A stretch of DNA of 64,000 nucleotides from a virus (Duplodnaviria; Caudoviricetes). Under the pieces are notes generated by a model. It was not told the origin of the DNA, did not search any database, and worked only from the letters and a program-made list of their open reading frames with translations. The stretch's first letter is position 1, and each line of letters opens with the position of its first letter. Shown here piece by piece: positions 6,998 through 64,000 of the stretch. Where the stretch lies: IMG/VR virus record IMGVR_UViG_2627853766_000003. One strand, 5' to 3'. The position numbers and the translations under genes were made by a program.

Positions 6998-7789
6998 TTA
7001 GGTCGGCGTCATGAAGCGGCGCATATCGTCTTTGTCGTGCGCAGTCAGAGAGCAGAGGGTCATTGGGATGAGGATTTCCGTGTAGAAGCCGTTCGACTCT
7101 ATTGGAGAAGACAGCGGCTCTCCAATCGACTCAATGACCATGGGCGCATACGTGCGGCGCTTGTAGGTGAAGCCGATCATCTGCGGAGCCTTAGAAGGAA
7201 GTAGGGCCGTGACGTAATCGGAGATACCGCTCTTTTTTGACATCACCCTCGCTACAAGACTGTCCTTGCTCAACTGCTGCGGAAGCGCCCAAAACCACAA
7301 CTGCTGAAGCGGCGCTTCAACTTCTGATTGCGCATCGAAATGCGCTCGGAAAAGCATAGTTAGGGTGATTTTCAGGGGGGGCATTCCGCTGAAAATCTGA
7401 GTGGAGTTCATCTTCGTAATGCCAGTGCGGCCCTGAACATCCTGAAGCGTTTTCGTTACGACGCCTGGATCGGAGGGGGATTGCGAAGACGAAGCAGTCT
7501 TACCGCCGCTCGGGGCTGCACGAACATCATTCATAGCCCCGAGTAGCGCTCCCGATTGAAGCATCGCGACCAGTGCTGGAGCTTTTGTGTCAGGGCTACT
7601 ATTCTCAAATGGCGACTGCCAATTCAGCGTTGCGTCTAGATTCACCTCTGTCAGCGGTGCTTGCACTTCAATCATCTCTTGACCATCTCGAAGCCCATCT
7701 TTGTTCACTGGGTAGAAGCTGGCTATCAGTAATGGGTTCAAGCCCATCCAGTCGCTGCTCAAAATCGTGTTGTCGCTGGTGCTCTTCAT
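6998..7789 (-). CDS. Phage protein resembling tail-tube initiator/baseplate proteins (T4 gp48/gp54-like layout)
   Basis: QIFSGMPPLKITLTMLFRA...EVEAPLQQL..WALP...MVIESI..P...G..TEI.IPMTL pattern; lies upstream of the tape-measure-like gene. Confidence 0.45.
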   Translation of the reverse strand: MKSTSDNTILSSDWMGLNPLLIASFYPVNKDGLRDGQEMIEVQAPLTEVNLDATLNWQSPFENSSPDTKAPALVAMLQSGALLGAMNDVRAAPSGGKTASSSQSPSDPGVVTKTLQDVQGRTGITKMNSTQIFSGMPPLKITLTMLFRAHFDAQSEVEAPLQQLWFWALPQQLSKDSLVARVMSKKSGISDYVTALLPSKAPQMIGFTYKRRTYAPMVIESIGEPLSSPIESNGFYTEILIPMTLCSLTAHDKDDMRRFMTPT

Positions 7790-23720: not shown

Positions 23721-24107
23721 TTACGCATCGCTGTCTTTGGCGGCCAACCTCGCAGAGGAACTCATGTTCTCGTCCGTAAGTTCTACGCGTCGCGCCCATA
23801 CCCAATAAGGTCCGTCTTCGGTGTCTTGAATCCAGATAGTGAACCAACCGTCACCAGCCGGTGACGCTGGTTCCCATGCGCTGATGTCAGGGTTACCATG
23901 CTCAAAATAGCTGTCAAATGCAGGATGGGTGTCATTCTCTCCTTCGAGCATTTTGTACTTGGTGAGTAGTCCTTGGCTATTCAACCAAGCTTTGTATTGA
24001 GCATCCTCACCCTCATCAAAATCTGGCATGTCTGGGTGTGTCCAGTAGCCGTACCCATCTCGTTTTACTTCTACTGCTTGGATAACTGTCGTCATGCTCA
24101 TCTCCAT
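23721..24107 (-). CDS. Conserved phage protein
   Basis: RDGYGYWTHP...WEP..P.GDGWF...I.DTEDGP. Confidence 0.75.
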   Translation of the reverse strand: MEMSMTTVIQAVEVKRDGYGYWTHPDMPDFDEGEDAQYKAWLNSQGLLTKYKMLEGENDTHPAFDSYFEHGNPDISAWEPASPAGDGWFTIWIQDTEDGPYWVWARRVELTDENMSSSARLAAKDSDA

Positions 24108-24122
24108 AAAATTGGTGTTGCT

Positions 24123-24261
24123 GCCAATGCGACTGCGGTCTGGAATCGAACCAAAGTCTTACGTCTTTCGCTACTCTGGATAGTCGCCGTGGCCTTTGGC
24201 GTAGTTTCCATTTCACTACTTCGCATATGCTCTACCACTGAGCTACCGCATGCGTATTGGC
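24123..24261 (-). ncRNA. tRNA-like structured RNA with extended acceptor stem and expanded anticodon arm
   Basis: Minus strand: TAGCTCAGTGGTAGAGCA (D arm), TTTGG-TTCGATT-CCAGA (T arm), closing stem GCCAATACGCATGCGG/CCGCAGTCGCATTGGC; intergenic. Confidence 0.7.
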
Positions 24262-24291
24262 TCCGCGCGCACCCGGCGCGGATCGGGGTGG

Positions 24292-24804
24292 TTATTTCGG
24301 TAGAAATAGTTCAGCAGTTGTTGTCGGTGCCGGCGGCTCAATGGTGATCTCGATGTCCTGCTGGATCCGGTCGCAGAGTAGGCCGACCACATCGGTATCC
24401 GGGTGCGCGATGATGCGGAAGCCGGTCACCACGGTGCCGCCGTTCTGTGGGTCGAACACGAACTTGTCGACCTTGCAGTCGTGCAGCACGATGTCGCTAT
24501 CGCCGCCCAGGCCATAGTCGACCGTGACCTTGTAGCCGGTGCCTTCGAAATCCCATTTGATCGCGCCCATCTTTGGAAAGCGTGGCTGTGTCGGCGATTC
24601 CGGATCGGCCTGCTCGGCCAGGTCGGGATCGTCCGGCGCCTTGTAAAGGAAGTCGCGCAGCTCGGCGCTGAACTGTTTCAGGATCTCGCCGCTCAGGTTC
24701 GCCCGGATGGACAGGTCGACGGCAATCTGATGCTCGTCGCCGTGCAGTTCTGCGCGCGGATTGACATTAGTCAGGCCGACCTGCGTTTTCGTCAATTCAA
24801 ACAT
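24292..24804 (-). CDS. Conserved phage protein
   Basis: NVNPRAELHGDE...AVDL; AAAGGA RBS. Confidence 0.75.
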   Translation of the reverse strand: MFELTKTQVGLTNVNPRAELHGDEHQIAVDLSIRANLSGEILKQFSAELRDFLYKAPDDPDLAEQADPESPTQPRFPKMGAIKWDFEGTGYKVTVDYGLGGDSDIVLHDCKVDKFVFDPQNGGTVVTGFRIIAHPDTDVVGLLCDRIQQDIEITIEPPAPTTTAELFLPK

Positions 24805-28612: not shown

Positions 28613-29275
28613 TTACTCGGGAACCCATTTCCCAATGACGACGCCAACAATTCTTGAGCCTTCCGGTATGGTCATGATTCTTGGTACATGTGATGGATTC
28701 AGCGCCTGCAGCATCATTGTGCCCTCTGAATCGATTAACAACTGCTTGAATGTGGCTTTTTCCTCGTGGTCAATCCGCACCACTACCATCGATTTGTTGA
28801 TCGCTTCTTTCTTCGGGTCCACGGCGATGTATTCACCTGGGGCATATGACTTTTCCCCGCCCGGGTTGTACATGCTGTGGCCCACTACCTGTAAGACGAA
28901 AGACTGTTCGCTATGCTTGAAAGGGCAGGCAATCCAGTCTTCTGCGTCGCCAGGATGGAAGTTGTCAACGATGTCCGACCACTCCCCCGCTTGAACCCAT
29001 GATATCAATGGAAGTTTCCCCCTATTCTCAACAGCAACAGCGTTGTAATCGAGCTTGCGCTCGGTGGCATTGACGTCTTCAACCCCTGTCAATAAGTGAT
29101 TTACTGTTGTTTTTAAGAGACGAGCAAGTCCCGGTAGTTTATCCTGCTCTGGCTTTCCAAGGGCGCGCTCCCATTCGGAAACGCTGACGCTACTGATGTC
29201 GAAGTAGTCTCCGACATCTTTTTGAGTGAGGCCGAGGGCCTTCCGGCGCGCTCTGATTATTTGACCAATTTCCAT
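28613..29275 (-). CDS. cI: CI-like repressor (HTH plus S24 peptidase)
   Basis: IRARRKALGLTQ...SVSEWE; PLISWVQAG; V.GHSM; ATFKQL; start at MEIGQ. Confidence 0.92.
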   Translation of the reverse strand: MEIGQIIRARRKALGLTQKDVGDYFDISSVSVSEWERALGKPEQDKLPGLARLLKTTVNHLLTGVEDVNATERKLDYNAVAVENRGKLPLISWVQAGEWSDIVDNFHPGDAEDWIACPFKHSEQSFVLQVVGHSMYNPGGEKSYAPGEYIAVDPKKEAINKSMVVVRIDHEEKATFKQLLIDSEGTMMLQALNPSHVPRIMTIPEGSRIVGVVIGKWVPE

Positions 29276-29339
29276 AAGGCGTAGCCTAACATTTGCAATT
29301 AAGGTATTCCCTGCTACAATCAACTAAGGCAACTCCTTA
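29275..29339. promoter_or_regulatory. OR operators with PR and PRM
   Basis: TAAGGCGTAGCCTAA (29275), TAAGGTATTCCCTGC (29300), TAAGGCAACTCCTTA (29325) at 25-bp spacing; TGc-TACAAT extended -10 at 29315; minus-strand TAGGCT 7 nt before the cI ATG. Confidence 0.85.
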
Positions 29340-63964: not shown

Positions 63965-64000
63965 TAATATCGCTATGACTGATATATATTTCCACTGCAC

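Follow-up and report, generated by a model that had tools for sequence, protein, structure and literature searches.

A tRNA-shaped element of a lambdoid prophage early-left operon in which a conserved arm replaces the anticodon loop

The 64,000-nucleotide (nt) stretch of Caudoviricetes DNA filed in IMG/VR as IMGVR_UViG_2627853766_000003, which was analysed whole and is called the window here, carries on its minus strand a 139-nt element (24123–24261) shaped like a tRNA with an extended terminal stem. As judged from sequence comparison, its anticodon loop is replaced by a 55–60-nt arm whose core, GGAAACUAC followed by a variable hairpin and GACUAUCCAG, is conserved in sequence. The element very probably belongs to a small, selected family of RNAs found in phage DNA. 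For its role, we favor a non-decoding, tRNA-scaffolded RNA that is cut from the early-left transcript by tRNA-processing enzymes, a reading that we consider evenly balanced between right and wrong. An earlier note on this DNA appears to have been right in kind, in that it proposed a non-decoding tRNA mimic under selection, and wrong on the fold of the insert.

The tRNA frame can be read directly from the sequence, with all coordinates on the minus strand. The tRNA-like core, comprising positions 1–72 in tRNA numbering plus the insert, occupies 24132–24252, which is also the span of our model R1. Acceptor positions 1–7 (CAUGCGG, 24252–24246) lie opposite positions 66–72 (CCGCAGU, 24138–24132), with five of the seven positions paired. 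The dinucleotide UA (U8-A9) leads from the 5′ acceptor strand to a D arm, GCUC-AGUGGUA-GAGC (24229–24243), in which A14, G15, G18, G19 and A21 are present, and A26 separates this arm from the anticodon stem. The two strands of that stem, UAUG (24224–24227) and CGUA (24160–24163, also placed by the alignment with a relative described below), enclose a 60-nt insert (24164–24223) at the place of the anticodon loop. Between CGUA and the T arm (UUUGG-UUCGAUU-CCAGA, 24139–24155) stands the variable loop, AGAC. The elbow nucleotides U8, A14, G15/C48, G18, G19, A21, G53, U54, U55, C56, A58 and C61, which are universal tertiary positions of tRNA, are all in place. With its acceptor stem, its D and T arms and a short anticodon stem preserved, the RNA should take the L-shape of a tRNA.

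The acceptor helix runs on for nine more positions into the flanks, where GCCAAUACG (24253–24261, 5′ strand) faces CGCAUUGGC (24123–24131, 3′ strand, without CCA). Eight of these nine outer positions are Watson–Crick paired, for which a binomial estimate gives a chance probability of ~1e-4, and the minimum free energy (MFE) fold recovers the extension. The whole terminal stem has 16 positions and 13 pairs: five acceptor pairs, a 2×2 mismatch (1-2/71-72), two pairs, an A·C mismatch and six pairs; position 72 has no CCA after it in the encoded sequence. The earlier note had described canonical D and T arms, this 13-pair stem without CCA, and a UAUG/CGUA stem around roughly 60 nt, and each description is confirmed from the sequence, that of the two arms also by a 31.4-bit match to the Rfam tRNA model.

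That match (RF00005) was obtained when 24050–24340 was scanned alone (291 nt, lax filters); it covers 24134–24250 within the core, exceeds the gathering cut-off of 29 bits (E = 6e-5), takes in both arms, and lets 64 nt stand in for 13 model positions. The element shares with tRNA an acceptor stem, a D arm, a T arm, the elbow nucleotides and a variable loop. It differs from tRNA in having a 4-base-pair (bp) stem around 60 nt rather than a 5-bp anticodon stem with a 7-nt loop, U33 and an anticodon, and in lacking a 7-bp acceptor stem with discriminator and encoded CCA, pairs 1-72 and 2-71 being broken. At E ≤ 10, the only other Rfam match in this region was to a Giardia U2 small nuclear RNA (11 bits, E = 3.5), which we take as chance. 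Since this meaningless match is the sole one outside tRNA, the models of C4, YrlA, transfer-messenger RNA (tmRNA), group I introns and ribozymes are unmatched, and the element is in none of Rfam's C4, YrlA and group I intron families at that threshold.

Three more specific identities were rejected. The earlier note had called the insert too short for a group I intron, and it is: it measures 60 nt, against a ribozyme core (P3–P9) that usually exceeds 200 nt, and no Rfam intron model matches at E ≤ 10. A tmRNA was set aside, as ARAGORN finds none in the window and the tmRNA of the host is located elsewhere. Descent from a host tRNA was also dropped, there being no close match among the 57 tRNAs of the host.

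Three contigs of different kinds inform on relatives of the element. Two public sequencing runs, one soil and one estuary metagenome, hold parts of the stretch. In the soil run, a contig of 3436 nt matches the flanks of the element at 24092–24120 (one other letter) and 24257–24300 (two other letters) and has 218 other bases where the window has 24121–24256; other contigs of the same run cover the upstream 170-amino-acid (aa) gene at ~91% identity. Because the soil contig keeps the flanks and swaps the interior, the element is best seen as the discrete, exchangeable filling of a slot, and the borders of the exchanged block nearly coincide with the extended stem. The estuary contig (151 nt, depth 2) matches the window at 24171–24213 only. 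This defines a 43-nt insert core, conserved with a single other letter, between flanks unlike those of the window. On the minus strand those flanks show, by eye, a D arm with GG in its loop, a perfect 5-bp stem where the anticodon stem should be, linkers of 10 and 6 nt, and a T loop UUCGAAU.

The third relative was found by scanning all viral contigs with the pattern GGAAACTAC-N(12-30)-GACTATCCAG, which returned three stretches: one in contig L243, and two that are identical to each other and have no tRNA frame. In L243 both halves of the core, GGAAACUAC and GACUAUCCAG, are identical to those of the window and identically spaced, and the 15 nt between them are wholly different. The surrounding frame (L243 7544–7662) has six of seven acceptor pairs, a D stem GACU/GGUC, a 4-bp stem CUGG/CCAG and a T arm GGACG-UUCGAAG-CGUUC. 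A tRNA frame together with an arm containing GGAAACUAC – 15 nt – GACUAUCCAG is thus the pattern that the window, L243 and the estuary contig have in common. The membership of L243 rests on the shared motifs and not on its score, because R1 scores ordinary tRNAs equally high; R1 was dropped as a family detector, as it scores every tRNA. In L243, the element follows genes for DnaB and a sigma factor and lies in a 1.3-kb region of RNA genes, with two canonical tRNAs (anticodons CAU and GUG) 150 and 520 nt downstream of it.

Changes between the window and L243 leave the frame paired. These two sequences were aligned under the guidance of a model that was itself built from the window, and to which the alignment was fitted. 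Of its cells, 94.6% are paired, against 33–45% when partners are slid by 1–3 columns, and 13 of its 28 pairs have changed on both sides. Changes on both sides affect D-stem pairs, three of four anticodon-stem pairs and four of five T-stem pairs. The earlier note had read the intact elbow as a sign of selection, and the relatives agree with this: they keep both the tRNA frame and the core of the insert.

These same observations speak against a functionless decayed tRNA gene or integration scar, an explanation that was already disfavored and that we regard as very improbable. It would suit an element that neither ARAGORN nor a default Rfam scan calls, that has mismatches at acceptor positions 1–2 and no anticodon or CCA, and that searches of 400 genomes each from the family and the order, and of phage, plasmid and Escherichia coli collections, did not turn up. 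It does not fit an insert core conserved in two unrelated contexts, nor the 13 of 28 pairs that have changed at both partners and still pair, nor the lack of a host tRNA (among 57) of which the element could be a copy.

Comparison also favors, on present sequences, one extended arm in the insert over the three separate hairpins of the earlier note. The proposed core fold (24177–24210) is the centroid structure of the window insert and the MFE structure of the L243 insert. It would consist of a helix H1, UGGA/UCCA (24207–24210 with 24177–24180), an internal loop AACUA/ACUA, a helix H2, CGCC/GGCG (24198–24201 with 24185–24188), and a 9-nt apical loop. Folded alone, the L243 insert forms this arm (z = −2.05) as UCUGGA/UCCAGA, a loop AACUA/ACUA, a 4-bp helix and a 9-nt loop. 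Between the two inserts H1 is invariant, and the apical helix H2 has two pairs changed on both sides and one changed on one side; the linkers that join the arm to the anticodon stem are purine-rich and unconserved. The three hairpins are present in the sequence and equal the MFE of the window. As a 'second cloverleaf' they fail, because neither relative has GUAGU, which forms the 5′ strand of the first hairpin. The covariation that the earlier note had proposed to test among homologues was obtained for the pairs of the frame and for H2, which co-change between the window and L243, and was not obtained for the extended stem, which is not seen in L243.

The element is likely not to decode. We removed every possible single segment in combination with variable-arm lengths of 3 to 24 and scored the resulting anticodon arm out of 13.5. 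The best arm scored 10.5 for the window and 11 for L243, and shuffled inserts did at least as well in 29% and 39% of cases, respectively. No single excision, then, restores an anticodon arm beyond shuffle level, which bears out the earlier expectation that this RNA would not read mRNA. In the estuary contig, excision likewise leaves no anticodon loop by eye. ARAGORN, with introns allowed and at its default threshold, called nothing at the element; at lowered thresholds it offered a tRNA-Asp(AUC) interrupted by a 39-nt intron and bearing a long variable arm, which we rejected as forced.

Insert-bearing tRNA genes of other viruses behave differently in this respect. The pattern D arm-N(61-91)-T loop returned 111 viral stretches, and 27 of their 92 unique sequences combine seven of seven acceptor pairs and five of five T-stem pairs with a near-perfect anticodon arm (at least 13 of 13.5) on excision. 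The segments excised from these 27 measure 39–64 nt, come from the 5′ side of the anticodon stem or loop, and leave ordinary anticodons restored. Among 72 unique model matches of at least 100 nt in the same loci, 34 likewise regain an anticodon arm. Because the loci were picked by our own pattern, both fractions are uninformative on phages at large. 'Enigmatic introns' have been published for the tRNAs of Lak megaphages (10.1101/356790). Insert-bearing genes of this type, as far as that source describes them, resemble the window element in having a tRNA frame broken in the anticodon arm by a conserved insert of tens of bases; they differ in that excision restores their anticodon stem-loop, which it does not do in the window or L243.

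A mobile, intron-like module of 43–60 nt that moves among phage tRNA genes would account for part of this. Such a module might cleave itself out, be cut by a nuclease and sealed by a ligase (for example, host RtcB), or inactivate the gene that it enters. The 43-nt core is nearly identical, with sharp borders, in frames that differ in D arm, anticodon stem, linkers and T arm. Moreover, the middle hairpin is identical in two frames although L243 shows that it is free to vary, which suggests recent transfer of a module. Short inserts are common in the phage tRNA genes of our pattern-chosen loci (27 of 92; 34 of 72), the megaphage inserts are, in so far as their source goes, a published precedent, and the host carries RtcB. 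Nevertheless, we consider this explanation unlikely. Excision leaves no anticodon loop in the window, in L243 or, by eye, in the estuary contig; no Rfam ribozyme or intron model matches at E ≤ 10; no homing endonuclease gene adjoins the element, the nearest HNH gene being 3 kb off; and a merely broken gene would not need an intact frame with compensatory changes.

The genomic setting is that of the early-left operon of a lambdoid prophage; the earlier note had likewise placed the element between genes of an early leftward operon. All members lie on the minus strand: a CI-type repressor (28613–29323), an HNH endonuclease, RecT, a YqaJ exonuclease, the 170-aa gene, the element, a phrog_1372 gene and a C5 DNA methylase. 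Between 23600 and 24900 we found no promoter-like sites on either strand and no terminator-like sites on the minus strand. With neither promoter nor terminator of its own, and flanked by genes on its own strand, the element is presumably co-transcribed with the operon. A GC-rich hairpin (24262–24282) separates the stop codon of the upstream gene from the element; its folding is ordinary for its composition (z = −0.4), and it falls in the flank (24257–24300) that the soil contig shares. On the other side, the start region of the downstream gene begins 16–28 nt past the element.

This arrangement would fit purely cis-acting 'tRNA punctuation', in which a cut by RNase P or RNase E would leave the upstream message ending in the GC hairpin and the downstream message with a short new 5′ end, and the released RNA would have no role. 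The element indeed sits between same-strand genes without a promoter or terminator of its own, with the hairpin directly upstream and the next start codon 16–28 nt downstream, and in the soil relative the slot is occupied by 218 other nt. Where this gene pair occurs in Burkholderia phages, a different, strongly folded stretch lies between the two genes, 163 nt long in two phages and 185 nt in one, with z = −5.3 in one of them. However, a cis signal needs the tRNA frame only, and so leaves unexplained the 43-nt core and the two 9–10-nt motifs in a distant virus. In L243 the element is surrounded by RNA genes rather than by protein genes, and 20 genome and 76 metagenome loci of the 170-aa family have neither tRNA nor element, the 170-aa gene mostly abutting the next open reading frame (ORF) in the 20 genome loci. 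We rate this explanation as rather improbable.

These loci came from a neighbor search with the 170-aa family, which returned the 20 genome and 76 metagenome loci and, in addition, three loci in Burkholderia phages. Neither the element (nhmmer, blastn) nor a tRNA (ARAGORN) was detected in any of the three sets, and in most of the 20 genome loci, whose downstream sequence was inspected, the 170-aa gene runs directly into the next ORF. A corresponding search with the 128-aa product of the downstream gene gave no viral locus. The Burkholderia stretches (L032 1418–1580, L033 1428–1590 and L034 1339–1523) consist of a GC hairpin followed by an irregular stem-loop of ~100 nt, bounded by GGCCUCAA/UUGAGGCU, whose interior varies among the phages and which has no Rfam match. 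They gave no convincing alignment with the window element, and we do not claim homology.

Returning to the reading that we favor, we envisage that the element is transcribed within the early-left operon and that its tRNA body would be both scaffold and processing handle. RNase P and 3′ processing enzymes would recognize the elbow and the acceptor/T stack and release a stable RNA of ~120–140 nt, and the same cut would also divide the message between the recombination genes upstream and the genes downstream. The conserved arm would be the working part, binding a protein or RNA partner. Our view of the tRNA body as a carrier comes from a combination of features: pairing in the frame survives through compensatory changes, the cargo stays alike in sequence, and an anticodon is lacking. 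The place of the L243 element among RNA genes and the stable RNAs of phage T4 (below) lend this view indirect support. Excision by tRNA-processing enzymes seems to us slightly more probable than its absence, and binding of a partner in trans by the arm is a tentative suggestion that falls somewhat short of even confidence.

Several observations weigh against the tRNA frame itself or against this reading of it. With default filters and gathering thresholds, Rfam did not find the element in the whole 64-kb window, and ARAGORN called no tRNA (and no tmRNA) there. Of the checks that the earlier note had proposed, the ARAGORN one thus turned out negative and the Rfam one mixed: a tRNA match above the cut-off in the region alone, none in the whole-window scan, and no match to C4 or YrlA at E ≤ 10. 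The folding energy of the element is ordinary (z = −1.6, with 12–14 of 200 shuffles equaling it), and the window insert adopts the three hairpins as its MFE, the extended arm appearing in the centroid only. The family so far has three members, one of them a 151-nt contig at depth 2, which limits all structural claims, and the pair counts share this narrow footing in that they compare two sequences in an alignment fitted to one of them. Rfam calls no tRNA in the L243 element even at E ≤ 10, R1 gives it 41.7 bits and ordinary tRNAs up to 47, and the long acceptor extension is not evident in it, the one full-length relative. A 16-position stem with mismatched positions 1–2 and no CCA would be a non-standard substrate for RNase P and for CCA addition, and a 43-nt core that is nearly identical in two otherwise differing frames also fits a mobile insert. 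Lastly, none of the public sequencing runs listed as holding the stretch is on record as RNA.

A decoy or sponge is another conceivable role, directed at a host defense or enzyme that recognizes the tRNA body or elbow and does not require the anticodon. The elbow and the acceptor/T stack are intact in all three members, and the element is phage-borne, presumably expressed from the early operon, and a swappable cassette in a variable slot, as counter-defense genes often are. The earlier note had put forward a decoy for tRNA-targeting defense nucleases; where these are anticodon nucleases the idea is less likely, because the element has no anticodon loop and so cannot mimic their substrate. Other points against a decoy are that no CCA end is encoded, that this analysis identified no defense system or partner, and that a pure mimic of the tRNA body leaves the conserved arm unexplained. 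We find a decoy improbable.

Among known systems, the closest in kind are the stable RNAs C (rnaC, species 1, 139 nt) and D (rnaD, species 2, 119 nt) of phage T4, which are encoded in its tRNA cluster and, in the parts of the two sources that we draw on, are described as having an unknown role (PMC3014915, PMC9697503). Like the window element they are phage-encoded and of similar size; they come from a tRNA-gene setting, whereas the window element lies in the early operon of a temperate phage. RNA C matches R1 over its 3′ 91 nt (17.8 bits), a part that has an acceptor stem and a T arm but not a normal anticodon arm. Unlike the window element, it is extended by 46 nt at its 5′ end and shows no regular D arm. 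Sequence homology is not demonstrable; an 8-nt match, GAGUAGCG, is not kept in other members of the family.

Other small RNAs share single features with the element. YrlA, a bacterial Y RNA, is non-coding and mimics the tRNA elbow on a long terminal stem, much as we take the window element to do. YrlA RNA ends at the anticodon-stem side, and the window element at the acceptor side; the latter also has no Rfam match to YrlA at E ≤ 10, and the complete host genome is without a TROVE domain (Ro/Rsr). The C4 antisense RNA of P1 and P7 and the CI RNA of P4 are small phage RNAs that RNase P frees from a longer transcript. They are not full tRNA mimics, and the window element matches no such Rfam model at E ≤ 10; moreover, a comparison of its insert with both strands of the host genome gave no match longer than 16 nt elsewhere, the matches being at chance level and none in multi-copy genes. 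In engineered tRNA scaffolds and in the tRNA-linked small RNAs of herpesviruses, a tRNA body serves to process and stabilize a foreign RNA, and in the engineered scaffold the cargo takes the place of the anticodon loop, presumably as in the window element. The former are artificial and the latter belong to eukaryotic viruses, whereas the window element is from a phage; we know of no natural bacterial or phage example of a tRNA scaffold.

If the tRNA body is indeed a carrier, the element would be the natural counterpart of the engineered scaffold and would suggest that phages have a hidden class of RNAs, overlooked by standard tRNA finders and by Rfam alike. More broadly, and with less confidence than for any of the steps above, we suggest that the tRNA body serves phages as a natural scaffold on which small functional RNA domains are processed, stabilized and presented, with the arm UGGA – AACUA / ACUA – UCCA as a new motif and one of several cargo families. 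The arm could be a protein sponge, a ligand-binding aptamer or a small ribozyme. tRNA-like RNAs of unexplained role have been known in phage T4 for fifty years; the present case is sharply defined, in that the tRNA frame is intact, the anticodon is missing, the cargo is short and marked by two invariant motifs, and the slot in the early operon of a temperate phage is swappable. The conserved arm is also short enough for direct tests of binding, cleavage and mutation.

Beside the scaffold reading, we note a second cargo family, in which two other viral tRNA frames hold a different conserved insert (L047 2010–2127 and L048 3337–3474). The ends of the two inserts are alike (CCGCUCAUGGUAAAGGACCAAA ... 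AGCUGCGGAAYU), the frames differ (anticodon stems CUGU/ACAG versus CUCCA/UGGGG), and no anticodon loop is left. The insert-bearing tRNA genes of contigs L035–L145 (for example, L048 9690–9796, L135 and L129) have restored anticodons that include GUU, UUU, CUU and GCA, and one subgroup of their inserts ends in GGUUAUC / GUUACUU. A 121-nt tRNA-like gene at L060 9918–10038 holds an insert that may be arranged in a similar way, an ACUA loop standing between a helix UAG/CUA and an apical helix AGAU/AUCU, with AGUAAAA as the 3′ linker; it has no canonical anticodon arm (best score 11 of 13.5) and, going by these motifs, is possibly a distant relative of the window element. Directly upstream of the family member in L243, and within the same 1.3-kb region, 186 nt (7341–7526) contain an acceptor stem of 7 bp (UGGGCGG/CCGCCCA) together with the T arm UCAGG-UUCAAAU-CCUGA. 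This stretch is without a D or anticodon arm, and neither ARAGORN nor Rfam calls it.

The element is absent from Rfam as a described family and from the literature searched, in which no such element is described; supplementary tables of megaphage introns, outside that search, might hold related inserts. By DNA comparison, it had no match in a phage collection, with or without its flanks, nor in a plasmid collection and E. coli genomes. In 400 genomes of the family, a DNA search returned only the 19-nt D arms of ordinary tRNAs and four chance matches of 23–35 nt, three of which were inspected and are apparently protein-coding, without a tRNA frame. A motif-pattern search of 400 genomes of the order did not find the element, and no second copy was found in its own genome. 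In viral contigs, exact stretches of 22 and 24 nt led to no relative, and a third motif pattern returned L243 again and nothing else.

The gene upstream of the element (24292–24804, minus strand) encodes a 170-aa protein that falls in no Pfam or PHROG family. It has 87 homologs, those with a named source all being from Burkholderiales. Its structure model is beta-rich and confident (predicted local distance difference test score 89.9); neither the model (best E = 0.05, template modeling score ≤ 0.36) nor the sequence has a significant match in PDB. Downstream, the gene at 23721–24107 (minus strand) encodes 128 aa of phrog_1372, a family of unknown function, with no PDB match by sequence. The host genome is complete and comprises 5.6 Mb at 56% GC, with 57 tRNAs and one tmRNA. 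A tRNA-Leu(CAA) gene (G000:C1 1176125–1176211) lies 63 nt past window position 64000 and may be the attachment site of the prophage.

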